Counted from the stretch's first letter, positions 9,851-63,624 are shown. The stretch is DNA of 64,000 bases from a virus (IMGVR_UViG_3300009502_000019); one strand, 5' to 3'. The notes: generated by a model not told the origin, from the sequence alone. A program made the numbers and translations.

Positions 9851-9867
9851 AGCGTCCTCCGGAATCG

Positions 9868-10638
9868 TCAGGCGAAACAGTACATTTCTTTCCTGACTAC
9901 TCTCTTTATGAATTTAACGGCGTTATAAAAACTGTAATGTGCTACTTCCTTGTAATGTGCTTCATTCCTCAGTTCGTTCCACTGGAGCTTCAAGTTCACC
10001 CTGTCCAAAAACATTTGCCTTGCCAGGGAGCTCTTCTGAGCCAACAGAATAGCTGTATGTGCCACTAGATCCTGATAGTACACCTCATCAAAGGGGCGCA
10101 TCTGAATAAGCGAATCCACGAGGTCAACGTCAAGGCTGATCGTGTCAGATTGGTAGGTCTTCTTACGTCGAATGGGTGCGTCCTTGGACGGCTTTGTTTT
10201 TAATAGCCTCCCATGCTCGCGTCTTTCAGCCATCTCGTCCTCAGTCTCGGTAACGATATAGCTTTTTCCGGACGTAAACCCGTATTCAGATTTCTTTCCA
10301 TCTTTATCAACAGAGGAATATTCCAAAATACCTTCCCAATCGTTCCGCTTGCGATAAAGGAGAGCATATAGAGACCTTTTAAAACTGTTCTGCTTGTGAG
10401 CTAGCGACTCGTACACTCTTTTTTTCATATCCCACTCAAGAATGTAGGCCTCTTGGAGAAAGTCAATTACGGATCGGTGGTACACGAAGGAGTATCTTAC
10501 GATTAGCTGCAGCCACTGCTTTGTTAGCGGGAACTTTTTTTCATCTACGTGCGGGATTGTTGCATTGCCGGCAGACTCCGGCATGAGTCCGTCTATCTGG
10601 TCAGTATCTTCGTAATCTGGGGGGTACGATATTGACAT
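9868..10638 (-). CDS. Hypothetical protein
   Basis: 256 aa ORF with an AT-rich promoter-like region upstream (10639-10810). Confidence 0.5.
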   Translation of the reverse strand: MSISYPPDYEDTDQIDGLMPESAGNATIPHVDEKKFPLTKQWLQLIVRYSFVYHRSVIDFLQEAYILEWDMKKRVYESLAHKQNSFKRSLYALLYRKRNDWEGILEYSSVDKDGKKSEYGFTSGKSYIVTETEDEMAERREHGRLLKTKPSKDAPIRRKKTYQSDTISLDVDLVDSLIQMRPFDEVYYQDLVAHTAILLAQKSSLARQMFLDRVNLKLQWNELRNEAHYKEVAHYSFYNAVKFIKRVVRKEMYCFA

Positions 10639-25059: not shown

Positions 25060-25080
25060 TTTATCCCCCTTTTATGTTAG

Positions 25081-25152
25081 TGCACCCACCAGGGCTCGAA
25101 CCTGGAACCAAAGGATTATGAGTCCTCTGCTCTACCATTGAGCTATGGGTGC
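25081..25152 (-). tRNA. tRNA-Met (anticodon CAT), or a lysidine tRNA-Ile
   Basis: Folds by hand: acceptor GCACCCA/TGGGTGC, D-arm GCTC-AATGGTA-GAGC, anticodon stem GAGGA/TCCTT with loop CTCATAA, T-arm CCAGG-TTCGAGC-CCTGG. CCA is not encoded. Confidence 0.8.
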
Positions 25153-28586: not shown

Positions 28587-29534
28587 CTATTCATACAGGC
28601 TTTGTTTTATGTACTCTTTGAATATAAGTGCGGTCTTTTTTCCAATAGCAGTTTGGGCTTCTTTACTAAAAACAATTTCTCCGACACTCTCTTTAAGCAC
28701 GTCCTCAACCATTGCTTTTATAATAGCCCCTGTTTCTGTAATAGTAGCATCCGGAAACCTATCAAGCACATGCATGAGGCGTTGACGCGTGACCCACTCG
28801 TCCGCGATAGCCTGTGCCTCTGTGAGTACTTCAAGGCGCTCTTTAGACACCTCTCTTTTCTTGGCAGTCTCCTGGAACTTCTCATTCTTGTGCTTGGCTA
28901 TTATCCGCTCACCATTGTTCTTCCGGAGCTCAACAAGAGTCCGTAAAACCACACCTTCACGGATATGCCCGGGCCCAACACCATTCCGCACAGCCTGGAC
29001 AGAGTCTGCCTCGGAAAGTGCATTTAAAACATCAAGATCTGTGGCAACCTCTTCATAATGAACAAACTCAATGCCGAGCTGAGCACACACAGACTCCGCG
29101 TTAGGCACAGCAAGCCAGTTTCCACCAAGCTTGACGTCGAAGGCTATAAACTTAAGCTCTTTGCCGTATGTGCCAGACATGCCCTGCTGCTTGCCACCAT
29201 AAGCTTCCCCAAAAACAATGAGCTCCTTGATGTTCATGGCTCGAAACTTGTTTTCTAGGTCTTGGTGGTTAAACAGTTTTATAAAGTTTTCGTGCTTTTC
29301 ACCGCCGGAGAAAAAATGCAGTTCAATCTTGTCAGGCCAGCGTTCTTGCCATTCAGCCTCAGTGTACCGCCTCGCGTCCTCGTTAACACCAATGATAGGT
29401 CCAAACACAAGCTGCCTGGACCGGTCAAGGCTAATATGTGCTGATGTTCCGTGGATCTTCTCCATAGCGTAGCAGCGCTTGAACATAAGAATTTCCTGGT
29501 TCTTGTAAAGATTATCTATCCCGAGATAGCCCAT
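28587..29534 (-). CDS. RNA ligase, Rnl2 (T4 RnlB)-like
   Basis: 315 aa. Motif I EKIHGTSA (lysine nucleotidyltransferase), matching T4 Rnl2 EKIHGTN, plus the downstream nucleotidyltransferase core. Confidence 0.7.
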   Translation of the reverse strand: MGYLGIDNLYKNQEILMFKRCYAMEKIHGTSAHISLDRSRQLVFGPIIGVNEDARRYTEAEWQERWPDKIELHFFSGGEKHENFIKLFNHQDLENKFRAMNIKELIVFGEAYGGKQQGMSGTYGKELKFIAFDVKLGGNWLAVPNAESVCAQLGIEFVHYEEVATDLDVLNALSEADSVQAVRNGVGPGHIREGVVLRTLVELRKNNGERIIAKHKNEKFQETAKKREVSKERLEVLTEAQAIADEWVTRQRLMHVLDRFPDATITETGAIIKAMVEDVLKESVGEIVFSKEAQTAIGKKTALIFKEYIKQSLYE

Positions 29535-29745
29535 CGTGGTCCTCCTCTAGTAGTGTAAACATTCCCTGATGCCCACAGGAAAGGCAGCTTGCACGGATAG
29601 TATCCTCGTCTTCTTTGGACAGTACCTCGTACGCGCATGTGTAGTTACAGATCAGGCACTTCTGCAGCATTATCTTTGGCTGAGTATTACTCATAGTGGT
29701 TGCTTTTTTACATACTTTGTTAGGTTGTTCTGATCCGCCAGCCAC
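29512..29745 (-). CDS. Zinc-ribbon small protein
   Basis: 77 aa with CLICNYTC...CLSCGH. Confidence 0.4.
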   Translation of the reverse strand: MAGGSEQPNKVCKKATTMSNTQPKIMLQKCLICNYTCAYEVLSKEDEDTIRASCLSCGHQGMFTLLEEDHDGLSRDR

Positions 29746-29987
29746 GCCGGAACTTTTACAATAAATGTTTCAGGACTTAGGATGCATTGGCTCTTTGGAA
29801 GCCATACCGTTACTGTTTTCATTGGCTTAGCGCTGTAGAAGCTCACAAGCCAGGCCTTCTTTGTTGTGTGCTTTAAACAATGAAACTCAAGTGACATAAA
29901 CGTTACTTTGCTATATGCGTCCCCGCCGCTGTATTCTCCCCAGTCCTCAAAGTTATCATCTTCCCAATCATCACCCCATTGGCCCAT
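29691..29987 (-). CDS. Hypothetical protein
   Basis: 98 aa ORF. Confidence 0.35.
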   Translation of the reverse strand: MGQWGDDWEDDNFEDWGEYSGGDAYSKVTFMSLEFHCLKHTTKKAWLVSFYSAKPMKTVTVWLPKSQCILSPETFIVKVPAWLADQNNLTKYVKKQPL

Positions 29988-29988
29988 G

Positions 29989-30252
29989 TTAAATGCCCCA
30001 CGTGTACCGTGGGTCCTCCGACTTGTTGTACATGTCTTCTTCGTGTTGTTTACGGTGTTCGTCTAGGTGCTTGAAAAGAAGTTTCCATATGGTAAACTTT
30101 TTTCCGCATTCGGTGCAGGTGAACTCAGTGGAAGGGGCGTGGCAGTCACATGTGGTACATCCGCAGGACAGTATTCCGTAGTAGGGTTCTTCCGAGGTAT
30201 TTCTGCAAGAGGGGTACTCTTGGCAATGCACACACGTTTTTCGGGGGGTCAT
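29989..30252 (-). CDS. C2H2-like zinc-finger small protein
   Basis: 87 aa. CVHCQE...CTECGKKFTIWKLLFKHLDEH resembles a C2H2 finger. Confidence 0.45.
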   Translation of the reverse strand: MTPRKTCVHCQEYPSCRNTSEEPYYGILSCGCTTCDCHAPSTEFTCTECGKKFTIWKLLFKHLDEHRKQHEEDMYNKSEDPRYTWGI

Positions 30253-30997
30253 TTACTTCTCCTATTTAGTTGGAGCCGGCGAACGGGGCGGCGGGTTCTT
30301 CCACCATGTCCGTCCACTCAAGTGGTATTTCTCCTCATCTGAGGCGGGGTTTTTGGCCATCCCACTGCCGGTCAATTCTGAACAACCGGCCTCTCGCCCC
30401 ACTATCTGTGCGTGTAACACGCCACAGCTCCAAACGATTGGTGGTCTTGGTTCACTGGTTGCGGTCTTTCCCCAAGCATAGTTTAAAAACACCACCAACA
30501 TTAGTTTGTAGCCGTATAGATTGGTACGTTTTTACTTAGCCCCTCTGAGAGTAACGGCCGGGCGACGTTTCTTAGCTGATGGCTACTTCTAAGCCTACAG
30601 CCCAATCACTTTAGGGAGTTTATCCCCTAATAGCACGGTTTCCCGCTATTCGACTACGCAAATTAAAGAGTATCTCGACGTAGGTTTTTCGCTTTAAATT
30701 CCTGTATGAGCGAATAGCGCCTGTAACCTCGAGCTTCAACCCGCCGGCGTCCCGGAATACTCTTTGTCAAATTGTTACCCACAGCACCACATGAGGGTTC
30801 AGTTTCCCGGGGGTTTTATTCGTGCTAACCGGGTATTGGGGCTACGGATACTCTCGCGGGCTAGTTTGCGATCACCGCTGACCATTTCCGACTCCTGTGC
30901 CTACCCTCATACGCCAAGCCGCAACACCCAACGTATTACTCTGGCACGCCCTGATGCTGACACAACCCACCTTTGCCTCCTACGCAACTTTTGTTAT
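30253..30997. ncRNA. ORF-free, GC-rich, structured ~745 bp region; candidate large non-coding RNA of unknown class
   Basis: No convincing ORF on either strand in a genome that is otherwise >90% coding. Long-range complementary segments are visible (GCTATTCG...CGAATAGC, CCCGGG pairs). GC content is higher than the flanks. Confidence 0.3.
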
Positions 30998-31285
30998 TTA
31001 TGCTTTTGGTGTAATCGCTTCTTGACGAGCCTGCTGCCGCTGAGCTTTTTCCTTTTTAAGGTGCCTGAGGATCTCCTTAGCTTTTTTGATGTCTAAGTCG
31101 ATCTTGTCGATAACTTTGTCGCGAAAGTGATGCTTGTGGGCGATCACATATCGCGTCCCGTTTGCTCTGTGTGGGTACACAGCGGAGCTCTCCGCCAAGT
31201 TGATTTCAGAGACACTTATTCCCGCTAGGTCCGCGATTTGCTTAGCCGTTAGACCGAGTGGGTGGTTCTTCGTGTGCTTTACCAT
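30998..31285 (-). CDS. Small HTH DNA-binding protein
   Basis: 95 aa. LTAKQIADLAGISVSEINL helix-turn-helix and a basic C-terminus. Confidence 0.5.
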   Translation of the reverse strand: MVKHTKNHPLGLTAKQIADLAGISVSEINLAESSAVYPHRANGTRYVIAHKHHFRDKVIDKIDLDIKKAKEILRHLKKEKAQRQQARQEAITPKA

Positions 31286-31444
31286 GGTTCTTTTTCCTTA
31301 TGTTAGTTGTTGGTTATGCTGTGCGAGTAAATAGGCTGCTCGGGGACTGGCGAACAGTACTAGCAACACGCCAGTGGAGGTGCTGTTAACGAGGACTTCT
31401 CCCCGGCTAGTTTCCTCTTGAATCCCCCAAGCAGCCATTTCTTG

Positions 31445-32551
31445 CTACTCCTTCTTGCTTAACATCTTTCCGAACACCCCGGACACGTCCATAAGAGAGG
31501 TGTTGTTATTACCGACCGGAATACCCCAAATCTGCAACGTCGGAGACAGCTTCTCCGCAAACGCAAGGTTCACGACATTCTGACCACCACCAAGAGCCTC
31601 GGCAGACAGTTTCTTGCCTTCTGCTTCAGCCTTGTACCGAGCAAGGTTACCAGCAGCTTCAGCTTCAAGACGGTACCTATCGGCATCTGCTTTCAGCTTA
31701 ATAGCTGCGGCATTGCCCTCGGCTTCCGCTTTAAGAGACTCCCCACGACCCTGTGCTTGTTGGATCGCTTGGAACTTCTCCCCCTCGGCTTCCGCTTTAA
31801 GTTTCAAGGCGTTCTGTTCCGCAGCAGCAGCCAAGTTCTTGTTGACCTCAACTTGCTGTGAGGCCAGCTTCTTGGACTCAATAGCCTGTTGGAACTGGGC
31901 ATTCTGCCACCGGAAATCCCTCATTAAGGCATCCTGAATGTTAATGGCAGGATATTTGCTGAGAGCGTCTTGAAGTTTTGTTTTAATGGACTGTTGGATT
32001 TGTTCACGGATCTTACCATCGTACATCTGCTCAGCCGTGTATTGCCCGATCGCAATACGAGCCTCTGACCGGACCTGCGGAAGCAGAATCTGATCCTCGT
32101 ACCCAGGACCTACTGACGCGTGAAGCGCCGGCACGTCTTTGGCATTGAGCGAGTAAATGATCGTCATGTCAACGTCAATACCCTGACCGTCAATGGTCTT
32201 GAGTGACATATTCCACTCATTAGAGTGCTGGTCCGACTTCATGGAGTCATGTGGGAATGACCGTGCGGATATCTGGTAGATCACCATATCCGTCTGCCAA
32301 TGATTAAACAAGTGGTACCCAACCCCCCTGGGCTCTGGCACAACCTTACCGGCGAACTTGTTCACTTCAACAGCAACTTCTGTAGGATGGACATTTACAT
32401 AGCCGAATGTGAGCAATGCCACAAACAGTACGATAAATGCTACGACGGCTCCCCCTATTCCAAATACTTGTTTACTTTTTTCCATTTTAATTCCCCTTTT
32501 TCGTTGCTGGTTTGGTGCTTTGCTTCGACTCTTCTTGCATTTCTTTTGCAT
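31445..32551 (-). CDS. SPFH/band-7 (prohibitin/HflK/C-like) membrane protein
   Basis: 368 aa. N-terminal TM helix, an SPFH core (VHPTEVAVEV...) and a long alanine/glutamate-rich coiled-coil C-terminus. Confidence 0.75.
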   Translation of the reverse strand: MQKKCKKSRSKAPNQQRKRGIKMEKSKQVFGIGGAVVAFIVLFVALLTFGYVNVHPTEVAVEVNKFAGKVVPEPRGVGYHLFNHWQTDMVIYQISARSFPHDSMKSDQHSNEWNMSLKTIDGQGIDVDMTIIYSLNAKDVPALHASVGPGYEDQILLPQVRSEARIAIGQYTAEQMYDGKIREQIQQSIKTKLQDALSKYPAINIQDALMRDFRWQNAQFQQAIESKKLASQQVEVNKNLAAAAEQNALKLKAEAEGEKFQAIQQAQGRGESLKAEAEGNAAAIKLKADADRYRLEAEAAGNLARYKAEAEGKKLSAEALGGGQNVVNLAFAEKLSPTLQIWGIPVGNNNTSLMDVSGVFGKMLSKKE

Positions 32552-32702
32552 TTTTTATCCACCCACTTGACATTCCAAACAGGATATTGGACGGACCTTC
32601 ATATCCAGATGCTGTCCACACAATATAATGGACAAAATTCGCTACAAACCACAGCAGTATCAACATTCCGAACAGCTCGATGAATCTAAACACTTCTACC
32701 AC
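32487..32702 (-). CDS. Small membrane protein
   Basis: 71 aa with two TM segments. Confidence 0.35.
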   Translation of the reverse strand: MVEVFRFIELFGMLILLWFVANFVHYIVWTASGYEGPSNILFGMSSGWIKNAKEMQEESKQSTKPATKKGN

Positions 32703-32706
32703 CTCC

Positions 32707-32946
32707 TTATCTGATGATCCCTTTTGATTTGGCCCATGTCAGCCAGTTTGTTTCAAGTAAAGCCGTAAACTGTATGTTGCTCATCGGAGCTTGTGTTTTA
32801 CTTGCCGCTCCTTTAAGCGCCTCAGCTTCCAGGCTCTTCAGTATTTCCCTACGGTCGTTAAGAAACTGTTCCCACTTTTTCATGCCTTCTTGAAATCCAA
32901 AATACCCGAAGATTGCAAGAAGTAAAACAAACATCGCGCCTACCAT
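32707..32946 (-). CDS. Small membrane protein
   Basis: 79 aa with an N-terminal TM segment. Confidence 0.4.
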   Translation of the reverse strand: MVGAMFVLLLAIFGYFGFQEGMKKWEQFLNDRREILKSLEAEALKGAASKTQAPMSNIQFTALLETNWLTWAKSKGIIR

Positions 32947-32960
32947 GCTTCACCCCCCTG

Positions 32961-33185
32961 TTAAAATCCTCCTGATGCACCACCGCCTCCGAAACTACCA
33001 CCACCAAAACCTCCAAACCCACCACCGCCGTCTCCGTCATCACAGCCACCACCAAATATGCCATCATCGTCAGAGTTTGCAATGACATACAAGACAACAA
33101 TGACCACGGCGATGGCGATTACCCACGCTATTACAGGATGGGTGTGAAACAATATCGAGATTTGATCAGCGTCGCCTTTTGTCAT
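32961..33185 (-). CDS. TM protein with glycine-rich GGFGGFGGG tail
   Basis: 74 aa. TM helix followed by DDGIFGGGCDDGDGGGGFGGFGGGSFGGGGASGGF. Confidence 0.5.
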   Translation of the reverse strand: MTKGDADQISILFHTHPVIAWVIAIAVVIVVLYVIANSDDDGIFGGGCDDGDGGGGFGGFGGGSFGGGGASGGF

Positions 33186-33556
33186 TAGAAATCGCCCGTA
33201 GCGCCTCCGCCACTAAAATCACCTCCGCCAAATCCACCAAAGCCACTTCCGGAATCGTCGTCGCCGCTTCCGCCAAAGCTAGGACCTGAGGAGTCATCGT
33301 CTCTTCTTTGACGGTCTTCCTCTTCATCCTCTTCTTCTTTTCTTTTGCGACTGGACGCGAGCTCTTCTCCACACTCCTGGCATACTCTTTTGTCATCGGT
33401 GCTGCACATACGCAGCTCTAGCTCTCGCAATGTGTCCAGCTCGACTGAGGTTACCGGAATGTACTGTACGTTTACCATTTCTGCACCACACCCTGTGCAG
33501 GATTCAATGGTCACAGACTTGCCTGCCAACACAATTACGTCTCCGACTTCTTTCAT
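33185..33556 (-). CDS. Zinc-ribbon / acidic / glycine-rich tail protein
   Basis: 123 aa. CTGCG...CQECG zinc ribbon, a poly-E/D/R segment and a tail GGSGDDDSGSGFGGFGGGDFSGGGATGDF. Confidence 0.5.
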   Translation of the reverse strand: MKEVGDVIVLAGKSVTIESCTGCGAEMVNVQYIPVTSVELDTLRELELRMCSTDDKRVCQECGEELASSRKRKEEEDEEEDRQRRDDDSSGPSFGGSGDDDSGSGFGGFGGGDFSGGGATGDF

Positions 33557-34053
33557 TGTCTCACCTCCTTGTTGATTGCTTGAAGTCCCGCTACCATACC
33601 ACCCTTCCAGTCGCCCCGCTTAAAATGAGGCGCAATGATATCGTGGATGATGTTGCCTGCTTTAGCGTCAGGCAAGAACGCTTCGGCTCCGCGGCCGGCT
33701 TCGATGCGGATCTTCCGGTCACTCTTAGCCAGGATAACAATAACGCCATTATCCTTGCCCTTAAACCCAACCTTCCACTTCTCTGCTACCTTGATGCCGA
33801 ACTGCTCAATCGACCACGGCTGTGTGGAGTTCACGATCAGTACGGCAACCTGAAGTTGTGGTTCAACAGACTTGCAAAATGTTGTGATCTGATCCACAGC
33901 CGAAGAGTCTAACAAGCCAAGTTGGTCAACAACATAGCCGGTAGCTTCCGGGATAGTGGGCACTTTCTCCACAGCTGTAGTAGAGACATCGCAGCCACAG
34001 GCTATGAGAGCCCAAACACACATCATCGGTACTAACCAAACTCGCCGGCTCAT
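33553..34053 (-). CDS. TPM-domain (YgcG/TLP18.3-like) lipoprotein
   Basis: 166 aa. Signal peptide plus lipobox (LIACGC). TPM-domain core GYVVDQLGLL...VAVLIVNS...GVIVILAKSDRKIRIEAG. Confidence 0.7.
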   Translation of the reverse strand: MSRRVWLVPMMCVWALIACGCDVSTTAVEKVPTIPEATGYVVDQLGLLDSSAVDQITTFCKSVEPQLQVAVLIVNSTQPWSIEQFGIKVAEKWKVGFKGKDNGVIVILAKSDRKIRIEAGRGAEAFLPDAKAGNIIHDIIAPHFKRGDWKGGMVAGLQAINKEVRQ

Positions 34054-34634
34054 TTAGCCACCTCCAAATTAACTTGGGGGGGCAGTTCGGCACCCTTCTG
34101 ACTGGTGTACATCGTCTTGGCTTCAAAGTGGAAGAAGCCGGCGAAGATGTTGCCCGGGAATGACTGAATGGACGTGTCGTAGATCTGTACGGACTCGTTG
34201 TACCGCTGACGGGCAACATTGATGCGGTTCTCAGTGCCTGCAAGCTCATACATCAGCCCCTGAACGGTCTCATTGGCTTTTAAGTTTGGATAATTCTCCA
34301 TAATCACTAACAGTCTTGAGATAGCACCGTCCAACTCACCCTGGGCCTTAACCTTGTCGTCACCCTTAGATCCGGCGTAATTCTTACGAGCATCTGCTAT
34401 TGCCTTAAACACGACCTGCTCATGCTCCATATACCCACGAGCAGCATTCACGAGGTTCGGAATAAGATCGAACCGGCGCTGGTACTGTGTCTCGACCTGG
34501 CCCCACTGCGTAACGCACTCAATACGCTGCTGGACGAGTGAGTTGTAGTTCCCTGTGATAAACCCGAACACGCAGAGTGCTATAAAAGCAAGCACCCCTA
34601 AAACCACTGCCATTCCAATTAAAAACCCCTTCAT
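34050..34634 (-). CDS. LemA-family protein
   Basis: 194 aa. N-terminal TM helix and the LemA core (QVETQYQRRFDLIPNLV...LLVIMENYPNLKA). Confidence 0.75.
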   Translation of the reverse strand: MKGFLIGMAVVLGVLAFIALCVFGFITGNYNSLVQQRIECVTQWGQVETQYQRRFDLIPNLVNAARGYMEHEQVVFKAIADARKNYAGSKGDDKVKAQGELDGAISRLLVIMENYPNLKANETVQGLMYELAGTENRINVARQRYNESVQIYDTSIQSFPGNIFAGFFHFEAKTMYTSQKGAELPPQVNLEVAK

Positions 34635-34635
34635 T

Positions 34636-34959
34636 TTATTCCCCCTTGTTTGTTGTTGGTGCCACTTGGCACGTTATTGTAATAAACTCTGCTGGACAAA
34701 CCGGCTTTACAAACACATTTATATTGCGTTCGCCATTTGTTACGGCACAATCCACTCCAAAATACTCGGCGGATATTCCCAAGACTTCTACCATCCTTCG
34801 CCGTAACTCAGCAACGGCAAACTCGAAAGTAGTTTCAGGGGGTTTTGGCCTCCTAGCTACTTCCTCAAACGACGCCGCCCTGAATACGGGTCTCACTATG
34901 TATTCTCCGCTTCTTTCTCTTTTGGTGCTAACGTAACGCGAGTGTCCGTGGCAAACCAT
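34636..34959 (-). CDS. Hypothetical protein carrying the shared AASFEEVARRPKPP motif; start uncertain
   Basis: 107 aa ORF overlapping the upstream gene's 3' end. Motif PVFRAASFEEVARRPKPPE is shared with ORF 1343-1987. Confidence 0.35.
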   Translation of the reverse strand: MVCHGHSRYVSTKRERSGEYIVRPVFRAASFEEVARRPKPPETTFEFAVAELRRRMVEVLGISAEYFGVDCAVTNGERNINVFVKPVCPAEFITITCQVAPTTNKGE

Positions 34960-35465
34960 GTCTGGTAAGGGTCCTTGGCCACGGCTTCATTGAAGGCGAT
35001 AACGGCAGCTTCGAGATCAGCAGATGGGTCCCAGTCTTCGTGAACATCGTCTTCAAGGAACTCATACACGTTAAGGACACGGCGTCGGTTCTGTTTGCAG
35101 AGCACTAGCTGCAGTTCCTCTGGCTCCAACCCTTCATCGTCGCAGTAATCAAGCAGGTCCTGCTCGTCAAAGAAGTAGGTGTCCGTGTCATAGATGGAGA
35201 TTGGCGTCTTGTAGTCCCACTGAATGACCTTAAACTTCTCAAACTTCTCTTGCTTTGATTTCTCTCTGCAGGACTCGCACTTTGTCCACCCCTTTTCCAT
35301 GGTTGCTCCACACTCGCACTTCAAGTGAGTGCATCCGGACCAGCGGGCCATGTGCTCATTGTCTCCCCAAAAGTGACCGTCTTTAGACATCCATCCGGTC
35401 ACAGTTACTTTTTTTGCTGCTTCGTCAGAGCTGTATTCGATCATAACGCCCCCTACTTTATGCAC
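34896..35465 (-). CDS. Hypothetical protein with Cys cluster
   Basis: 189 aa. CTHLKCECG...CESC zinc-binding-like cluster and an acidic middle. Confidence 0.45.
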   Translation of the reverse strand: MHKVGGVMIEYSSDEAAKKVTVTGWMSKDGHFWGDNEHMARWSGCTHLKCECGATMEKGWTKCESCREKSKQEKFEKFKVIQWDYKTPISIYDTDTYFFDEQDLLDYCDDEGLEPEELQLVLCKQNRRRVLNVYEFLEDDVHEDWDPSADLEAAVIAFNEAVAKDPYQTWFATDTRVTLAPKEKEAENT

Positions 35466-36919
35466 CCGAGACGCTTGCGAATGTCTGCAAGTGTGTACTC
35501 GGTTACGATTTTGCCATCTTCAAATACGGTTGTAAGCAGCCCAAGATCCTCTTGTTCTGGCGTGACATCTTCAATCATCGTGAGCTCTCCGGTTGTAGCA
35601 TCTTGATTAACCTGCAAGAGCCCGCGGGCGGACTTCTTGATCCCGCTATCGGTTTTCGGGTCCTTGTAGATAGTCACAGGCTTTCCGTTGATGATGCCCC
35701 AGGTAGCTTTCATGGCAAACCCGAAGGTGTCACGTGTCACAAACTGGTAAGTGTAGCTTCCGATGCCAAACACCATGTTCGTGGACGCAAACCCCTTTCG
35801 TGCAAGACCTTCACAAATGGCTTCGCACCGCTCAAGTGTGATGCTGTCGCCATAGATTACCCCAATGTGCTTGTCGAGTTGCTTGAACCCTTTAGCGTTT
35901 GTGTAGCCGCCAAAGGTGTTCCACAGAAGCTCAACAGTGCCGGCTTTGGCTGCTGGATCATCACTCACAGCGTCGCCACAGATGATCTTCACAGGATCAC
36001 CACTGTCGGGGCGAACCACAAGCCGACCGTTCCGGTTCATAATTACATCTTTTAGAGCCGGAAGGGTCTTCGTGATCACATTCCAGTAGTCCCATGTGTC
36101 AGACACAACAGAGACAATGCCAGTAGGATAGATCTCAGTAAGGAGCCTGCGAAACGTCTCTTCTTCTGACAGAAGACCACCGAGGCACATGACCGAGTGC
36201 TCCGTTGCCGGAACACTGCCACCTACCATCTCCTTGTCAGAGTCAGCGCCGTAATATTCTTCAAGGAAGTCGATCGCTGGGACCGTGTCCGTGCCCGTAA
36301 AGCTAAGCAGATGGCCAGCAGCAGACATTAGGGCTCCCTCAATCCCAAATATTCCTCGCATCGAGAAGTCATGGCCCTGCCAGTTGACAAACTCCGGAAT
36401 GTCAGATGTCCTTGCCGCGTACCCATCCAGCATCTTTCTGTAGGCGTAGGCTGTAGATGCTGAAGTGGTTGGGCCCCACACGATATTACACATGACTGTT
36501 TCCATGAAGTTTGTTAGCCAAAAAAACTTCGGGTGGGTGTTCCGGATCGTTAGGATCGGAATACGCATCGGACACAGAGTTCCTTCTGGAAGAGCTTTGA
36601 GCAGAATAGGAAGGTATCCAAGATCATGAAGCTCCCCAACGTGCTCAATGGGAACAGAGTCTTTTCCAAGAGCATTATCAAGGCGCCGTTTGTACTTGCG
36701 AACAACCTCGTCTTTTGGTTGGTTGAAAAAGTCCTCATTCCACCGCTTAATCAAGTACTCTTTGACAAAATACTGGATTCCAAACACGACCACGTGGTCG
36801 ACCCCAGGCACACGGCTCCCGCGAGGCGTTAGATTGGAGTACACGATCTCAGTTCCTGTCGGGTACTGCCTTCTATGGTCTGTTTTGTAGAAATCCTTGA
36901 GTACAATGGGTGAAATCAT
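35453..36919 (-). CDS. nadV: Nicotinamide phosphoribosyltransferase (NAMPT/NadV)
   Basis: 488 aa, collinear with NAMPT/PBEF family proteins (length and core GIQYF...DSGDP...GVIYGD). Confidence 0.8.
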   Translation of the reverse strand: MISPIVLKDFYKTDHRRQYPTGTEIVYSNLTPRGSRVPGVDHVVVFGIQYFVKEYLIKRWNEDFFNQPKDEVVRKYKRRLDNALGKDSVPIEHVGELHDLGYLPILLKALPEGTLCPMRIPILTIRNTHPKFFWLTNFMETVMCNIVWGPTTSASTAYAYRKMLDGYAARTSDIPEFVNWQGHDFSMRGIFGIEGALMSAAGHLLSFTGTDTVPAIDFLEEYYGADSDKEMVGGSVPATEHSVMCLGGLLSEEETFRRLLTEIYPTGIVSVVSDTWDYWNVITKTLPALKDVIMNRNGRLVVRPDSGDPVKIICGDAVSDDPAAKAGTVELLWNTFGGYTNAKGFKQLDKHIGVIYGDSITLERCEAICEGLARKGFASTNMVFGIGSYTYQFVTRDTFGFAMKATWGIINGKPVTIYKDPKTDSGIKKSARGLLQVNQDATTGELTMIEDVTPEQEDLGLLTTVFEDGKIVTEYTLADIRKRLGCIK

Positions 36920-37341
36920 TTTTCTTGTATCCTTTCCTTTTCAATTTCGTTCACTACAGCCTCCAGTACGATATACGCCTGCCCGAGACCGGCGCGGTCG
37001 TCAAGCAGGGTGCTAAAAAATGGCTTTCCGCCGTCTTTAAGCAGCGGACTCTCATTGGTGAAGCTTGGCATAAACCCAAGCGAGTACCTACAGTAATCCT
37101 GCTTAAACTTAAGCTTGTCAGGATTAGACTCGTTAGTATACAAGCACATTGTGAGCCCAAGTTTACTGCATCGGCGGAGCAGCTCCATAACAGCGGTGTA
37201 GCAGTGTCCCTGGTGGTGGTAGTCAAAGATCGTTTCATCGAAGTCGAACCCGATAACAAGGTTACCGTACTTTTTGAACTCGTTACGGAGGCGTTCGATG
37301 CACCTATTTACATCGCAATATGGATCAACGACTTGGCTCAT
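36916..37341 (-). CDS. HAD-like small hydrolase (possible nucleotidase)
   Basis: 141 aa with HAD motif I VIGFDFDETIFD. Confidence 0.4.
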   Translation of the reverse strand: MSQVVDPYCDVNRCIERLRNEFKKYGNLVIGFDFDETIFDYHHQGHCYTAVMELLRRCSKLGLTMCLYTNESNPDKLKFKQDYCRYSLGFMPSFTNESPLLKDGGKPFFSTLLDDRAGLGQAYIVLEAVVNEIEKERIQEK

Positions 37342-37769
37342 TTCCCCTCCTTCTCAAGAGTGGACAGGCGGTTCTGGAGTTCTTTGTTTTCAGCCTCCAG
37401 TTTTTCAAATGCACAATCAAACGCATAATCTCCTTTTGAAGCATCCTCCATAATCTTTTCCAACTCAGCGTTACGAGTGCGGAGTTCTTCCATTTCCTTA
37501 TCCTTGCGCTCAATACATTTTTTGACTTGAACAAACTGCCAATCATTTTCTTTCAGCCTTTCTTCCAACTCTGCGTTCTCACGCTTGAGGTCGGCTATCG
37601 CATCCAAGGCATTCTCGCCGGTTACTTCCTTCGAGTGCCCCGTTATGCCCAGAGCTTCCTCGATTTCTTCTATCAGCTGATCTTTCAGCGTTAGGATGAT
37701 ATCCAAACTTTCAACACGGGCCTTAAACTCCCCAAGTTGCCTGTTCATGTCTTTTTCCTTATCGCTCAT
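37338..37769 (-). CDS. Coiled-coil protein (segmentally paralogous to 58864-59643)
   Basis: 143 aa, heptad-rich. Shares NKELQNRLSTLEKEGK / EELRTRNAELEK with the plus-strand protein at 58864. Confidence 0.5.
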   Translation of the reverse strand: MSDKEKDMNRQLGEFKARVESLDIILTLKDQLIEEIEEALGITGHSKEVTGENALDAIADLKRENAELEERLKENDWQFVQVKKCIERKDKEMEELRTRNAELEKIMEDASKGDYAFDCAFEKLEAENKELQNRLSTLEKEGK

Positions 37770-38527
37770 TTCACTTTACCTTTCAGTGTGTATATCTCGT
37801 CGATAATGCCGTCGAAGACTTCCATTCCTTTGGTGAAAAAGCCATGTGACACCATGAGAATGACCTTCTTGGCACCCTTTTCACGAAGGACCTTGGCGAT
37901 CTCAATGAAAGTCTTGCCTCCGTCGCAAATATCGTCAACAATTACACAGGTGTCCCCTTCCAATGAGTCGGCATAGACAACCGTTCCGGTGATGGCTCCT
38001 GTCCGCGGCTCCCGTTTCTTCGAACACTCAACAACACCCAAGATCCGGTTGGTCATAGAAGGAAGGTCGCTGATCTTGTTGATCTTCTTCCTGGCACCGC
38101 CATCCGGGCAGATCAACTTAAACGGCTCTATCTCCCTAAGCATCGGTTCAAAGATCTCATGCTGATGTATTACAAGGCAGTTGTGGATAAGGGCTGTTGA
38201 AACGTCCGAGTGTGGGTCAGCGATCTCCACGACAACCCCCAGCGAGTTGATAATGCCGGCGAATACCTCCAAGGAGAAGCACTCCCCTGATACAGCGACC
38301 CTATCCTGCCTTCCAAAAGGAACATACGGCATAAATATTCGTTCAAGGGTTAGACCAGCATGCTTTAGGGCATTGGCAATGAGCATAAGCTCAACCAGCT
38401 CCTCGGTCCTCTCGAAGTAGAACTCAATCGCAACTTCGTCGTTCGGGGTGTAACTGTGCACCTTAACGTGCATTTCTCCAACCGGAAACTTGAATGTTTC
38501 GTGTGTAAACCCAAGACCCTTAATCAT
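37766..38527 (-). CDS. prs: Ribose-phosphate pyrophosphokinase (PRPP synthetase)-like
   Basis: 253 aa. PRTase-type PRPP-binding loop VIVDDICDGGKT and an N-terminal Prs fold. Confidence 0.75.
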   Translation of the reverse strand: MIKGLGFTHETFKFPVGEMHVKVHSYTPNDEVAIEFYFERTEELVELMLIANALKHAGLTLERIFMPYVPFGRQDRVAVSGECFSLEVFAGIINSLGVVVEIADPHSDVSTALIHNCLVIHQHEIFEPMLREIEPFKLICPDGGARKKINKISDLPSMTNRILGVVECSKKREPRTGAITGTVVYADSLEGDTCVIVDDICDGGKTFIEIAKVLREKGAKKVILMVSHGFFTKGMEVFDGIIDEIYTLKGKVK

Positions 38528-38994
38528 GTTCCCTCCCCCATTTGGTTATGTTTTTATTTCTCGTAGTTTTCAAGGTAGCGCATTGCTTCTTGGAGAGCTA
38601 ACACGGAGTCTCCTAAATACCCTATTCCAAGGTTGCATCTTCTGCACAGCAGTCCTCTGAAATGGCGATTGCCCGGTCTTCACGGATCTTGCTATTGTTG
38701 CGCTTCAAGGAAGCAATGAACGCTCCCGGTGCTGGTGTTTTCGCTTCTTCTGACATTGTGTTCCCCCTTGTTGTTGGTTGTTGTTAAAAAAGTTTGAAAA
38801 TACTAAGCCAGAGGTGGTGCGCACTGTCTCAGCAGGTGACCCCACCGAGCACCTCAGCCCGATAACCTCCATGGAGGTCGTCAGGTTTATCAATTGCCAC
38901 CGAGTTAGTTGTTGTTACTGTTAGTCCGGCCTATTGGCCGGTGTGGTCAAGTTGTCCCGGATCCCACCCAGCAACGCTCTATGGTGTGACAAGC

Positions 38995-51756: not shown

Positions 51757-52218
51757 ATGGCTGATCTGTATTTGCATAGGCTTGTAAGCAATCATAGAAT
51801 CGTTGGATACGAAGCAGCAATTCAGCAGCCGGATGGCACAATTAAATGGATGTATCGGCGCTGCCACCCGAGAAGAGGTGAGCTACCAGGTTTGTTTGAC
51901 TGGAGTTTTGAGGGACTGTCTCATGACACAAAAAATATAGCCGCTGGAGTAATTGATGGTAAATTTCGGGATCAGAAACTACAAATATATGAAGGAGACA
52001 TTTTACAGTGCTACCCAAGCACGCGTGACGAGGGGCTTTATGTAGTGACATCATATGAGTACGCCGACGGGATAGATTCCAGAAGAGGTTTAAAATTTGG
52101 TAAATATGAGTTCACGCCGTGCACGCTGGTAGGAAATATCTACAATAATCTTGATTTCTATAACTCAAAATGCCGCAAAAAAGAGAGAATAAATCCATAT
52201 GTACAAGTTCAAAAATGA
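51757..52218 (+). CDS. YopX-like protein
   Basis: C-terminal LVGNIYNNLDFY resembles the YopX family GNI(Y/H)ENPELL ending. Internal Met start chosen. Confidence 0.45.
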   Translation: MADLYLHRLVSNHRIVGYEAAIQQPDGTIKWMYRRCHPRRGELPGLFDWSFEGLSHDTKNIAAGVIDGKFRDQKLQIYEGDILQCYPSTRDEGLYVVTSYEYADGIDSRRGLKFGKYEFTPCTLVGNIYNNLDFYNSKCRKKERINPYVQVQK

Positions 52219-54358
52219 AGAAATGAAAGTCCCGGCATTCATATGGTCTGCGGAGGGATCGATCGAGGAGTCTGCTCTGTCACAGATCAGCAACCTCTCG
52301 AAGCTCCCATTCGCGTTCCACCACATCGCGATCATGCCGGACTGCCACTCTGGATATGGCATGCCAATCGGTGGCGTGTTGGCCGCGGAGCGTGTGGTTA
52401 TTCCTAACGCGGTTGGTGTGGATATCGGTTGTGTTGACAAAGATACAGAGTTTCTTACTGGTTTTGGATGGAAGAAAATTTCGGAGTACAAGGATGAAAA
52501 AGTAATGGAGTACTGTCCAGATACTGGGGCAGCTAGACTTGTTACGCCTGAGAACTACATAAAGGTGCCGTGCGAAAAATTTATACATTTTAAAACAAAA
52601 TATGGCATTGACCAAATGGTTAGTGAAGATCACAGATGTTTAGTATTCCTTAACGATAGGAAGACCAACTTCTCTAAGTATCAAGTAGACTTGGCTTCTG
52701 AAATACTTCAAAAGCACTTGTCCACAAAAACAGGATACAGGCATAGATTTGTAACAACATTTACTCCGGAATTAATAACACGTGTTAGTCTTACAGACGC
52801 CGAGCTAAGAGTAATGGTAATGTTCTGTGCCGACGGCTACATAGACAGAACTCGGGGGCTACTCAGGGTCAAAAAAGATAGGAAAGTTAAGCGTGCAATA
52901 AAGCTACTGAATGATGCTAATATAAAATATATACAAAGTGTCAATAAGTATGATGGTGTAACTCATATACGATTTTCTCCTCCTATTCTTGAGAAAGGTC
53001 TAAAGCAATTTTGGAATGCTAGTTTTGAGCAGCTTCTTGTAGTAAATGATGAAGTGCTACATTGGGACGGTAACGAGAAAGATCAAGTATTCTTTACTCG
53101 GAATCGGGAAGACGCTGATTTTGTTCAATACGTCTTCTCCTCGTGTGGATTTAGGAGTGTTCTTCGGACAGATATTGGGAGAAGCGGGCTAGATAGTGAA
53201 TTAGACTATCGAGTATTTAGATCAACTAGCACTAAAATAGGAATGAACGGGTACCCAAAAACTAAAATGTCGTATGCTAAAAGTGAAGACGGGTTTAAGT
53301 ATTGCTTTACAGTCCCGTCTGGATTTTTTATCGCAAGAAGAAACGGGAACGTGTTTGCAACAGGAAACTGTGGTATGTGCGCTCTAAAGACTCCGTGGAC
53401 AACTGAGTGGATCACCAAAGAGGTCATTAAGAAGCTCTTTGGAGGCTCGAAGGAGCATCACGGCGGCATCAGAACGGTTGTACCGGTAGGGTTTAGTCAC
53501 CACGGTGAAAAACAGAACGAGCAGCTTATGCCTGAAACGCGATCAATTCGCCAGGCTTTCCTAGTCGACTCAAGTATTGTTGAGCAGGAGTACCAGTCTG
53601 CCTTGAAGCAGATTGGGACGCTCGGCGGTGGGAACCATTTTATCGAAATACAGAAGGATCAGACTGGGTTTATTTGGATCATGATTCACTCGGGAAGTAG
53701 GAACATTGGCTTTAAGGTTGCTAAGCACTACAATGACCTCGCTAAGGAAATGACTGCAAAGTGGTTTTCGTCAGTTCCAAAGGAGTCTGACTTGGCATTT
53801 CTTCCTATAGACAGCACTGAAGGTCAGAAGTACCTACTTGAAATGCAATACTGTGTCGAGTTTGCGCTGGCTAACCGCAAGCTAATGATGGAGCGCATTG
53901 TAAATGTGTTTAACAGCACTCTTGGTGGCAGCATCGACATGAGCGGAATGATAAACATTGCTCACAACTACGCCACTGTCGAAAGCCATTTTGGAAAGAA
54001 CGTTATGGTTCACAGGAAGGGAGCGACTTTAGCCAGAGAAAACACTATCGGCATCATCCCTGGATCTCAGGGCACCAAGAGCTACATCGTCAAGGGTAAA
54101 GGTAATCAAGAGAGCTTTATGTCCTGCTCACACGGCGCCGGCAGGACTATGAGCCGTACCAAGGCTGAGAACACCCTAAACCTTGAGGAAGAGCAGAGGC
54201 GTCTGGACGATCAGGGCATCATTCACGGTATCCGGACAGCAAAGGACCTTGATGAAGCTGCGGGCGCGTACAAGCCGATTGATCAGGTAATGAAGAACCA
54301 GGAAGATCTCGTCGAGATCGTGGTTGAACTGCAGCCTTTAGGGGTCATTAAAGGCTGA
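52199..54358 (+). CDS. rtcB: RtcB RNA ligase interrupted by an intein (precursor)
   Basis: Exteins match RtcB: HHIAIMPDCHSGYGMP..GVDIG|CGM...NHF...HNYA...SHGAGR. Insertion is precisely at the conserved GVDIG-CGM site. Confidence 0.85.
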   Translation: MYKFKNEEMKVPAFIWSAEGSIEESALSQISNLSKLPFAFHHIAIMPDCHSGYGMPIGGVLAAERVVIPNAVGVDIGCVDKDTEFLTGFGWKKISEYKDEKVMEYCPDTGAARLVTPENYIKVPCEKFIHFKTKYGIDQMVSEDHRCLVFLNDRKTNFSKYQVDLASEILQKHLSTKTGYRHRFVTTFTPELITRVSLTDAELRVMVMFCADGYIDRTRGLLRVKKDRKVKRAIKLLNDANIKYIQSVNKYDGVTHIRFSPPILEKGLKQFWNASFEQLLVVNDEVLHWDGNEKDQVFFTRNREDADFVQYVFSSCGFRSVLRTDIGRSGLDSELDYRVFRSTSTKIGMNGYPKTKMSYAKSEDGFKYCFTVPSGFFIARRNGNVFATGNCGMCALKTPWTTEWITKEVIKKLFGGSKEHHGGIRTVVPVGFSHHGEKQNEQLMPETRSIRQAFLVDSSIVEQEYQSALKQIGTLGGGNHFIEIQKDQTGFIWIMIHSGSRNIGFKVAKHYNDLAKEMTAKWFSSVPKESDLAFLPIDSTEGQKYLLEMQYCVEFALANRKLMMERIVNVFNSTLGGSIDMSGMINIAHNYATVESHFGKNVMVHRKGATLARENTIGIIPGSQGTKSYIVKGKGNQESFMSCSHGAGRTMSRTKAENTLNLEEEQRRLDDQGIIHGIRTAKDLDEAAGAYKPIDQVMKNQEDLVEIVVELQPLGVIKG
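52430..53368 (+). mobile_element. Intein (313 aa) with LAGLIDADG-like homing endonuclease domain inside rtcB
   Basis: Begins with Cys (CVDKDTEFLTG) and ends ...VFATGN, followed by the extein Cys (CGM). Internal LTDAELRVMVMFCADGYI resembles a LAGLIDADG motif. Confidence 0.75.
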
Positions 54359-62225: not shown

Positions 62226-62311
62226 TGGTGGCCGAGGCGGGACTTGAACCCGCACGTCCTTTCGGACACAAGCCCCTCAAACTTGCGCGGCTGCCATTAC
62301 GCCACTCGGCC
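62226..62311 (-). tRNA. tRNA-Leu (anticodon GAG), class II with long variable arm, CCA encoded
   Basis: Hand fold: acceptor GGCCGAG/CTCGGCC, D-arm GTGGCGTAATGGCAGCCGC, anticodon stem CAAGT/GCTTG with loop TTGAGGG, variable stem-loop GTCCGAAAGGAC, T-arm GCGGG-TTCAAGT-CCCGC, 3' ACCA. Confidence 0.7.
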
Positions 62312-62320
62312 AATAAAATT

Positions 62321-62530
62321 ATGAATCACGTTTTTAAAGCTGCTACTCAAGACGAAGTACGAAAGCGTATATTCGCGTGTGTTGACTGCAACTACTTCTT
62401 AGATAACTTAGGTGGTATACAAAGCGTGTGTTCGAAGTTTTACCCAAGCATATCCATACAACTTACGGATCCGAACAGCTCTGTTCCAAAGTGGTGCCCG
62501 TTAAAAGATGGTGGGCACGGTAGGACTTGA
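62321..62530 (+). CDS. Small protein between tRNA genes (paralog of 61446-61724); 3' end overlaps the tRNA on the opposite strand
   Basis: ATG at 62321. CVDC and Cys/Pro-rich. Confidence 0.3.
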   Translation: MNHVFKAATQDEVRKRIFACVDCNYFLDNLGGIQSVCSKFYPSISIQLTDPNSSVPKWCPLKDGGHGRT

Positions 62531-62592
62531 ACCTACACGTCCGAAGACACAGGCTTCTAAGACCTGCGCGGCTGCCATTACGCCACGTGCCC
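62509..62592 (-). tRNA. tRNA-Leu (anticodon TAG), class II
   Basis: Same D-arm as the other Leu tRNAs. Anticodon stem CAGGT/GCCTG with loop CTTAGAA. T-arm GTAGG-TTCAAGT-CCTAC. CCA encoded. Confidence 0.7.
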
Positions 62593-62670
62593 TTGGTACC
62601 GGATGAGGGAATCGCACCCACACTTTACGGCTTTTAAGACCGTCGCCTCTGCTATTGGGCTAATCCGGCT

Positions 62671-62756
62671 TGGTGCGAGTGGAGGGACTCGAACCCCCAC
62701 ATCCTTTCGGACATCGGCTTTTGAGACCGACGCGGCTGCCATTACGCCACACTCGC
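62671..62756 (-). tRNA. tRNA-Leu (anticodon CAA), class II
   Basis: Anticodon stem TCGGT/GCCGA with loop CTCAAAA; variable arm GTCCGAAAGGAT; CCA encoded. Confidence 0.7.
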
Positions 62757-62761
62757 TTGAT

Positions 62762-62846
62762 TGGTGCGATCGGCAGGACTTGAACCTGCACGGGGTTGAC
62801 CCATAAGCTTCTGAGGCTTACGCGGCTGCCATTACGCCACGATCGC
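62762..62846 (-). tRNA. tRNA-Leu (anticodon CAG), class II
   Basis: Anticodon stem TAAGC/GCTTA with loop CTCAGAA; T-arm GCAGG-TTCAAGT-CCTGC; CCA encoded. Confidence 0.7.
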
Positions 62847-62847
62847 T

Positions 62848-62926
62848 TGGTCTCTCTGGTCAGGGTCGAACTGACATGATATCCTGTTTAGAAGACAGGT
62901 GGACTATCCAATTATCCCACAGAGAG
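62848..62926 (-). tRNA. tRNA-Arg (anticodon TCT)
   Basis: Acceptor CTCTCTG/CAGAGAG. Anticodon stem CCTGT/ACAGG with loop CTTCTAA. T-arm GTCAG-TTCGACC-CTGAC. CCA encoded. Confidence 0.65.
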
Positions 62927-62927
62927 G

Positions 62928-63611: not shown

Positions 63612-63624
63612 ACTTACTCCAGGT

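Follow-up and report, generated by a model that had tools for sequence, protein, structure and literature searches.

The virus-derived stretch IMGVR_UViG_3300009502_000019 (64,000 nt, referred to as a whole as the window) carries on its minus strand, between 31445 and 34634, seven closely spaced open reading frames (ORFs; Table 1). We concluded that this cluster is a phage-borne, split version of the bacterial LemA/YgcG-type TPM module, joined to a prohibitin-like SPFH scaffold. In the bacterial pair (COG1704/COG1512; e.g., loci L001 and L002 and many IMG/VR loci), a TPM domain, one or three transmembrane (TM) helices and a glycine-rich tail are on one polypeptide next to LemA, often followed by a second TPM gene. 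The phage cluster has the same Pfam families in the same order, LemA and TPM proteins that are likewise predicted to be extracytoplasmic, and the same C-terminal glycine/phenylalanine (Gly/Phe) motif ending in F or W, but its tail is always found on a soluble zinc-ribbon protein and sometimes also on a one-helix protein. The phage module is a fission derivative of the bacterial one, and its core consists of LemA, a short TPM protein and the zinc-ribbon tail protein, encoded collinearly.

A first-pass annotation of this DNA had described the cluster as a phage-encoded membrane module, and translation of the window found all seven ORFs in position on the minus strand, at the coordinates described earlier. 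Its LemA, TPM_phosphatase and Band_7 assignments were borne out by hidden Markov model searches, with scores far over the Pfam gathering cut-offs (26.2, 22.1, and 23.6 bits, respectively). The LemA product matched PF04011 over profile positions 1-148 of 149 (176.4 bits, E 4e-52) and the PDB entry 2etd (E 3.6e-42). It has a hydrophobic segment at residues 4-22 as N-terminal anchor, followed by a four-helix-bundle domain; this N-terminal layout is common to 60 LemA proteins, in some of which a lipobox replaces the helix. The TPM product matched PF04536 over profile positions 1-124 of 125 (114.8 bits, E 3e-33) and the PDB entries 7tbr, 2kw7, and 5anp (~1e-19). Its N-terminus, MSRRVWLVPMMCVWALIAC, is a signal peptide with a lipobox (LIA/C), and the protein stops at the end of the domain. 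With neither TM helix nor tail after the signal peptide, it does not have the YgcG-type arrangement of TPM domain, TM helix or helices and Gly-rich tail on one polypeptide. The TPM and LemA genes are co-oriented and overlap by 4 nt in the window.

The short TPM protein always has an export or anchor signal (L-numbers denote the contigs or loci compared, P-numbers denote proteins). The window, L090 and L094 have a lipobox; L004, L005, L006, L091, L093, L103, L104, L106, and L112 have a type IV pilin-like N-methylation signal; and L007, L011, L092, L111, and L113 have a plain signal or anchor. The pilin-like (N-methylation, class III) TPM proteins are encoded, for example, at 8669-9223 in L004, 8585-9148 in L005, 8587-9138 in L006, 5474-6001 in L091, and 5465-6001 in L093. 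The alternative that the short TPM gene is the counterpart of the tail-less second gene in bacterial triads was rejected: the phage TPM profile matched the YgcG-type protein of L001 (E 2e-29) and not the second TPM gene, which makes a YgcG-type origin more likely. L001 (CAKLQH020000003.1, deposited as "Acinetobacter phage MD-2021a") looks bacterial, with annotated genes for glutamate synthase, bacterioferritin, O-antigen ligase, and prepilin. The unannotated L002 (MT835515.1) has, by eye, ORFs for UDP-glucose epimerase, thymidine phosphorylase, and thioredoxin reductase. Since both records look like bacterial chromosome fragments, matches to them are not to be read as phage occurrences.

The evidence for the split comes from the tail itself. 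The YgcG-type C-terminal motif GGGxFxGGG(A/S)Sxx(F/W) is present on two proteins neighboring TPM. In the zinc-ribbon tail protein, two CxxC knuckles are followed by an acidic linker and the terminal residues ...GFGGFGGGDFSGGGATGDF; the one-helix TM-tail protein has a hydrophobic segment at residues 18-36, then DDD, and the C-terminus ...GFGGFGGGSFGGGGASGGF. The last 14 residues of 36 phage zinc-ribbon tail proteins gave the consensus GGGxF(S/G)GGGAS(R/G)x(F/W), and those of 17 of 20 canonical TPM-TM-tail proteins GGGx(F/S)GGGG(A/S)SGx(W/F); the overall motif can be written as (F/W)GGGxF(S/G)GGG(A/S)Sxx(F/W)-COOH. Canonical proteins of this kind were found next to LemA on a mislabeled Acinetobacter contig (where the gene is annotated as ygcG), in a 635-kb huge phage and at many IMG/VR loci. 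A profile built from the phage tail proteins and run against 1.84 billion representative proteins gave 78 matches, about 45 of which carry the zinc-ribbon N-domain (all 71-181 amino acids [aa] long). Another 16, longer proteins matched the tail part of the profile alone, each at its exact C-terminus, and an N-terminal TPM domain was present in nine of the ten longer proteins scanned. The TM-tail protein resembles the C-terminal half of a YgcG-type protein and in phmmer searches cross-matched the C-termini of canonical TPM-TM-tail proteins (E 1e-5 to 7e-7). By sequence, then, the phage tails are true homologs of the C-terminal motif of YgcG-type TPM proteins, and the earlier proposal that such a tail had been split from TPM onto two small proteins proved real on both the shared consensus and the profile search.

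Four unrelated proteins (P0164, P0170, P0173, and P0193) end in the same combination of acidic run and Gly/Phe motif: two coiled-coil proteins (267 and 282 aa) and two small Cys-rich ones (73 and 97 aa). Because TPM, coiled-coil and Cys-rich proteins carry it too, the tail behaves as a portable C-terminal module. A further arrangement was seen at 3378-3986 of L114, where an in-frame fusion joins a TPM domain, truncated at its C-terminus and preceded by a pilin-like signal, to the helix, acidic run and Gly/Phe tail of the zinc-ribbon tail protein; it has no zinc ribbon, and its parts are not separated by a TM helix. This fusion comes from a single sample and may be a deletion, defective or misassembled variant.

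The zinc-ribbon tail protein has no hydrophobic segment and no signal, and its zinc-ribbon matches in Pfam and NCBIfam were below threshold only. An AlphaFold2 (AF2) model of it had a mean predicted local distance difference test (pLDDT) score of 64, with a folded N-domain (~75) and a disordered tail; a Foldseek search of the PDB with this model gave no match below E 0.5. When 5.8 billion proteins were searched with the N-domain, 170 clusters were recovered, all of 111-139 aa and all metagenomic, and no family member among them was named from an isolate genome. The exact protein of the window is encoded on 20 metagenomic contigs, the longest of 202.6 kb, and tblastn with the N-domain found no match in 50,697 GenBank phage records. 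We concluded that these proteins form a small family, of which no description was found in the searchable literature. Most or all of the four Cys ligands have been lost in P0122, P0125, P0148, P0149, and P0158, which otherwise keep the N-domain and the tail, so that zinc binding cannot be a requirement in the family.

The module was compared in a total of 18 distinct contexts, obtained by IMG/VR scans, by the zinc-ribbon N-domain search with contig look-ups, and by one metagenome scan; a second IMG/VR scan with the zinc-ribbon domain as query returned previously found contigs only. The zinc-ribbon tail gene is present in all 18, with the short TPM gene immediately upstream in every case. LemA is upstream of TPM in all 16 contexts with sequence reaching that far, with one ORF between the two in L007; an intervening ORF is also present in L114. 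The TM-tail gene was found in four contexts, the window and its homologs in L004, L005, and L007, and the SPFH gene in six. The module make-up first proposed thus holds for the zinc-ribbon tail protein, which is universal, and has to be relaxed for the TM-tail and SPFH proteins. The dN/dS ratio (non-synonymous to synonymous substitution rates) was 0.05-0.15 among close relatives for the LemA, TPM and zinc-ribbon tail genes and, in comparison with L007, ~0.24 for the TM-tail gene and ~0.14 for the 71-aa ORF, indicating that all five genes are under purifying selection. Because the tail motif is shared with canonical TPM-TM-tail proteins, the gene order recurs in 18 contigs and the dN/dS values are low, the cluster is not a chance assembly.

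A near-identity DNA search with the region gave no match in the 50,697 GenBank phage records, and INPHARED contained neither a zinc-ribbon tail homolog nor the short-TPM arrangement. In GenBank phages, TPM domains were confined to huge uncultivated phages and mislabeled contigs. The huge phages (e.g., LR745206, 635 kb) have LemA followed by a tailed TPM, the unsplit bacterial architecture, whereas Enterococcus, Listeria, and Lactococcus phages have lone LemA genes; in the tblastn search of GenBank phages the zinc-ribbon tail protein was absent from both groups.

The SPFH product matched Band_7 (PF01145; 81.7 bits, E 9e-23) and phrog_200 (E 5e-29), and its best solved matches were prohibitin-1, prohibitin-2, and QmcA (prohibitin 8rrh, E 4.6e-7). 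It consists of an N-terminal TM anchor, the SPFH domain and an Ala/Glu-rich coiled coil. Translation most likely starts at M23 (32485) and not at 32551, because M23 has its own ribosome-binding site and the longer ORF overlaps the upstream gene by 65 nt. The first-pass annotation had called this protein HflK-like and had pointed to the effects of HflKC on FtsH and phage lambda. That label is too specific: the NCBIfam equivalogs for hflK and hflC (TIGR01933 and TIGR01932) scored 17.3 and 17.4 bits against cut-offs of 159.4 and 134.4, respectively, and the cluster has a single SPFH gene. Membership in HflK/HflC was therefore rejected, and the FtsH/lambda argument loses its specific basis here.

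The six SPFH genes adjoin the LemA-TPM-zinc-ribbon trio within 2 kb, on its 5' or 3' side. They lie downstream of the trio in the window (after two small TM ORFs), in L090 (after a 46-aa TM ORF), and in L111 (directly), and upstream of it in L094 (directly, after a 64-aa two-helix ORF), in L104, and in L007 (1.5 kb away, preceded by a homolog of the 71-aa ORF). LemA is 53-70% identical in the five IMG/VR relatives; the SPFH proteins, by contrast, are distant from that of the window (E 1e-11 to 1e-14) in every context but L007. This difference in divergence argues for a repeated or long-maintained association, beyond inherited synteny alone. An SPFH gene is also found near the lone LemA of L032 and near the canonical LemA-TPM pair of L026. 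Given its recurrence in six contexts and in different orders, the link of SPFH to the module, as first suggested, is meaningful; it is real but facultative. SPFH genes of T4-like phages have been on record since 2006, without assigned function, and the SPFH ORF (098c) of Aeromonas phage 44RR is numbered next to a pilin-like one (097c; PMC1524935). Much as in phage 44RR, a separate small pilin-like protein is encoded right after the SPFH gene in L007 (4567-4923).

The 71-aa and 79-aa proteins between the TM-tail and SPFH genes had no match in Pfam, NCBIfam, or PHROG, and neither is a recognizable NfeD partner. The 71-aa protein has a clear homolog in L007 (E 1e-26), there too encoded directly 5' of SPFH, and small TM ORFs also precede SPFH in L090 and L094; it is likely a partner of the SPFH protein. 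The 79-aa ORF is called as a gene on identical contigs, and its only similarity elsewhere is a weak local match (FQEGMKK; E 0.015) to the 46-aa ORF that occupies the corresponding place in L090. Its membership of the module is uncertain.

The seven genes are separated by -4, -4, -1, +14, +4, and +1 nt, from LemA to SPFH, and a Shine-Dalgarno-like sequence precedes every start codon. A 159-nt gap follows the SPFH gene, the last of the cluster, and one weak terminator-like hairpin lies 3' of that gene at 31336-31357. In a scan of 29500-38600 for promoters and terminators the number of sites was no higher than in shuffled sequence.

Table 1. The seven genes of the LemA-TPM-SPFH cluster, listed from LemA to SPFH.
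Product	Length (aa)	Coordinates	Strand	Domain or feature
LemA-family protein	194	34050..34634	-	PF04011
Short TPM-domain lipoprotein	166	33553..34053	-	PF04536 and lipobox
Soluble zinc-ribbon protein with Gly/Phe tail	123	33185..33556	-	CxxC...CxxC, acidic linker, tail
One-helix TM-tail protein	74	32961..33185	-	Hydrophobic segment, acidic stretch, Gly/Phe tail
Small protein with N-terminal hydrophobic helix	79	32707..32946	-	Hydrophobic segment at residues 1-19
Small one-helix protein	71	32487..32702	-	Hydrophobic segment at residues 10-28; directly 5' of SPFH gene
SPFH/Band_7 protein	346 from M23	31445..32485 (longer ORF to 32551)	-	PF01145

We next considered the topology of the products. 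The LemA bundle, the lipid-anchored TPM domain and the SPFH domain are all predicted to lie on the outer face of the host cytoplasmic membrane. For LemA this placement follows from the charge bias of the anchor and from lipobox variants in bacteria: among the 60 LemA proteins the N-terminal flank is basic (2.9 K/R and 0.25 D/E), the 15 residues past the helix have 1.4 K/R and 2.0 D/E, and several bacterial proteins have a lipoprotein signal (...SGC/GYN) in place of the anchor helix. The SPFH protein has a single helix after a basic N-terminus, which suggests that its domain, like those of HflK/C and prohibitins, is exposed to the periplasm. The Gly/Phe tail, on the other hand, probably works on the side facing the cytoplasm. 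Two features point to this: in canonical TPM proteins the domain and the tail are separated by one or three hydrophobic segments, after which a basic stop-transfer sequence often follows, and the zinc-ribbon tail protein is devoid of both signal and hydrophobic segment.

What the module does can be proposed by analogy, and tentatively: possibly, though with less than even confidence, the phage makes a complex that organizes or stabilizes the host inner membrane during infection. The module proteins would assemble in the infected cell into a membrane-microdomain complex, which would stabilize, repair or reorganize the inner membrane so that the cell stays energized until lysis. As a portable peptide, the Gly/Phe tail would bring cytoplasmic partners to the complex or to the membrane; its uncharged stretch might attach to the LemA helix or to the membrane itself. 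Where an SPFH protein is encoded, its cage would enclose or control this patch of membrane, much as SamI restrains SamG-SamH in Bacillus subtilis.

The closest experimentally studied parallel is that B. subtilis system. The σW-controlled pspA-ydjGHI genes (samGHI) encode zinc-ribbon, TPM-TM-tail, and SPFH proteins that are partners of PspA (PMC8581546, PMC11237479, bioRxiv 10.64898/2026.02.06.704340), and TPM, band-7, and zinc-ribbon domains have been recorded as PspA partners (PMC11237479). YdjG and YdjH are interdependent membrane proteins that recruit the SPFH protein YdjI, and via YdjI also PspA, to the stressed membrane (PMC8581546); the SPFH protein SamI restrains SamGH, and its loss leads to constitutive SamGH signaling (bioRxiv 10.64898/2026.02.06.704340). 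We located the ydjGHI sequences by a published primer sequence in a B. subtilis-group genome (L096). There YdjG (zinc ribbons and a TM helix) ends in ...MMGGGF, YdjH (TPM-TM) ends in ...SGSRGSF, and YdjI combines Band_7_1 with a zinc ribbon. The domain set (zinc-ribbon, TPM and SPFH) and the F-terminated Gly/Ser tails run parallel to those of the phage module. PspA stands there in place of the LemA of the phage, however, the YdjH tail is Ser-rich and shorter, and the phage zinc-ribbon protein, unlike YdjG, has no TM helix and no NTF2-like domain. The first-pass remark of knowing no described phage system of this composition stood up to INPHARED and to full-text literature searches, which returned nothing on the LemA-TPM pair in phages and no study of the function of the pair; the kind of system, however, has a precedent in pspA-ydjGHI.

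Several observations weigh against this functional picture and against too close a comparison with SamGHI. The phage SPFH protein is a membrane-anchored Band_7 protein that probably faces the periplasm, whereas YdjI is cytosolic and joins a Band_7_1 domain to a zinc ribbon. Orthology was not supported by the searches: BLASTP of the phage TPM protein against YdjH gave E 0.14, the phage SPFH protein had no similarity to YdjI, and hhalign aligned the phage zinc ribbon with its B. subtilis counterpart at a probability of 42%, over the Cys knuckles only, a generic match. PspA was not matched among the seven products and three flanking ORFs scanned. Most contexts have the trio with no adjoining SPFH gene and only four have the TM-tail gene, and where the TM-tail protein is missing there is no evident link from the cytoplasmic zinc-ribbon tail to LemA and TPM on the outer face. 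Some zinc-ribbon family members are missing the Cys ligands, and the TPM-tail fusion of L114, if functional, would put the tail outside. Nor did the literature searches turn up a demonstrated function for the LemA-TPM pair of bacteria, so that the mechanism rests on analogy. With no orthology to YdjG, YdjH or YdjI, the idea that the module is a member of the SamGHI system was rejected; SamGHI was retained as an analog only, because the domain composition is parallel and orthology is absent.

Other known systems resemble individual parts of the module. HflK/C, prohibitin and QmcA share with the phage SPFH protein the N-terminal anchor, the SPFH domain, the coiled coil and a probable location on the outer face of the membrane, but the phage has a single SPFH gene with a 71-aa TM partner, and neither an HflK/HflC pair nor NfeD. 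Psb32/TLP18.3 likewise has a TPM domain on the non-cytoplasmic side, anchored close to a membrane complex, and the phage TPM protein gave a weak NCBIfam match to it (E 1.4e-5). Psb32 is described as acting late in the assembly and repair of photosystem II, and a glycine-rich extension is present in its non-photosynthetic homologs (bioRxiv 10.1101/2025.05.08.652833); Psb32 differs in being devoid of that extension and in its photosystem role, which has no place in the phage. In a Flavobacterium sppA mutant under membrane stress, lemA and a TPM gene were induced (PMC13236525); like the Psb32 comparison, this is circumstantial support.

A special case of membrane stabilization, suggested by the first-pass annotation, would be counter-defense, in which the complex neutralizes host abortive-infection effectors that perforate the inner membrane or depolarize it. 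It would fit that all products are located at the membrane and that the cluster lies in an accessory region of the window beside NAD+ salvage genes; similar genes adjoin the module, by sequence appearance, in L007 and L004, and NAMPT lies near a lone LemA in L085. NAD+ salvage is a known type of phage counter-defense. However, none of the seven products was matched in PADLOC-DB 2.0 at E <= 0.01, no target defense system was identified, and to our knowledge no module component matches any known anti-defense family. The wide distribution of the LemA-TPM pair in bacteria also suggests a housekeeping or stress role and not a conflict-specific one, and we consider counter-defense unlikely. A broader scenario, in which the Gly/Phe motif is a targeting peptide that docks unrelated cytoplasmic carriers (zinc-ribbon, coiled-coil and Cys-rich) onto a trans-membrane LemA/TPM platform, with or without SPFH, and a clade of large groundwater and sediment phages has dismantled this platform and put it to use as a new kind of phage-encoded system for membrane protection or counter-defense in the infected cell, is speculative, and we give it little credence.

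Superinfection exclusion or envelope remodeling, whereby the periplasm-facing LemA, TPM and SPFH proteins would stop later phages from delivering their DNA, is similarly doubtful. The usual exclusion factors are phage-encoded lipoproteins and small inner-membrane proteins; phrog_200, which the SPFH product matched, is labeled "lipoprotein", and the swapping of TPM anchors (lipobox, pilin-like or plain) would be expected of a system adapting to different host envelopes. Such factors, however, are usually single, fast-evolving genes, and here there is a three-gene core of housekeeping type with dN/dS of 0.05-0.15, in which the cytoplasmic zinc-ribbon tail protein would have no obvious role. Control of proteolysis, with SPFH acting in the manner of HflK/C on host FtsH so as to stabilize or destabilize phage or host proteins and with LemA and TPM as accessories, appears very unlikely. 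The anchored, probably periplasm-facing Band_7 protein and the annotation of a similar Vibrio phage gene as "putative modulator of FtsH protease" would agree with it; the failed hflK/hflC models, the closer resemblance to prohibitins and QmcA, the lack of an HflK/HflC pair and the occurrence of the core without SPFH in most contexts do not. A role in lysis or in the virion, with the small TM proteins and lipoprotein as holin- or spanin-like proteins or LemA as a virion or ejection protein, is scarcely credible: several small one-helix proteins and a lipoprotein are present, and the phrog_1383 family of LemA is labeled "virion structural protein", as are some Enterococcus phage records, but this is an annotation label on what, like TPM and SPFH, is a conserved bacterial membrane protein, no endolysin gene is adjacent, and the neighbors are replication, recombination and nucleotide-metabolism genes on the same strand.

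The window genome is that of a phage, remote from cultured phages. Its replication and recombination genes encode PolA, a DnaB-like helicase, a primase, a UvsX-like recombinase, a gp32-like single-stranded DNA-binding protein, an SbcCD-like nuclease and endonuclease VII. Against the 50,697 GenBank phage records PolA reaches no more than 33% identity, and most of the gene content belongs to PHROG families or has no assignment. The long contexts are phage-like as well (contigs of 52-215 kb with GroEL/ES, RecA, Ro60, RNA ligases, PolA and HNH genes). That the contigs are instead fragments of small-celled bacteria or plasmids, with the module an ordinary host operon, is most improbable: one contig was binned as an Elusimicrobia metagenome-assembled genome, several short contigs come from 0.1-µm groundwater filtrates and no structural genes lie within the window, but the window also has RNA ligase and RtcB genes and a tRNA array, five relatives are IMG/VR viral contigs, the flanks read at other loci are phage-like with no ribosomal or core metabolic genes, and no zinc-ribbon tail member is named from an isolate genome.

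Other features of the surroundings were recorded. Directly upstream of the module, on the minus strand, are NAD+ salvage genes, encoding NAMPT (35453-36919) and a PRPP-synthetase-like protein (37766-38527). NAPRTase- and nicotinamidase-like ORFs were recognized by eye beside the module at 10-726 and 2290-2973 of L007 and at 6601-7287 of L004, and NAMPT, at 8618-10084 of the unrelated contig L085, lies 2 kb from a lone LemA. These surroundings could be an accessory or anti-defense island for NAD+ reconstitution. RNA-repair genes of the window encode an RtcB ligase-PhoH-like fusion of 719 aa (52199-54358, plus strand) and an RNA ligase (28587-29534, minus strand); related contigs add PNKP, Thg1, 2'-5' RNA ligase and Ro60/TROVE-vWA genes (L090, 317-6127 and 18741-20165; L092, 7099-8571). 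There are eight tRNA genes: an array at 62226-63700 with five tRNA-Leu (GAG, TAG, TAA, CAA, and CAG) and two tRNA-Arg (TCT and TCG), and a lone tRNA-Met at 25080-25152 (minus strand) among the replication genes. Next to the RNA ligase gene, three consecutive small Cys-rich ORFs (77, 98, and 87 aa; 29512-30252, minus strand) are followed by a stretch of ~740 nt (30253-30998) with no convincing coding-strand ORF and slightly raised GC content. One of the three had a C2H2 zinc-finger match of 23.8 bits (Pfam cut-off 25.2). No Rfam family matched the ORF-poor stretch, even at E 1, and with a fold z-score of -0.7 there was no sign of a structured RNA.

Although LemA and YgcG-type TPM proteins are very common in bacterial membranes and the structures of their domains have been solved, the searchable literature yielded no functional study of the pair. 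The phage cluster amounts to a dissection of this bacterial module by nature. It identifies the glycine-rich tail as a discrete, conserved C-terminal motif and not mere low complexity, and it indicates that a covalent tie to TPM is not needed and that a soluble cytoplasmic carrier is possible, which would fix the side on which the tail acts. It further indicates that LemA, TPM and the tail belong together and that an SPFH scaffold joins them repeatedly. By domain logic, the LemA-TPM pair is tied to the experimentally studied SamGHI/PspA envelope-stress system, from which testable hypotheses can be drawn. A conserved membrane module is added to the accessory gene set of large uncultivated phages, beside NAD+ salvage genes. 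The module overturns nothing; it offers unusually direct structural clues to a common, uncharacterized bacterial gene pair.

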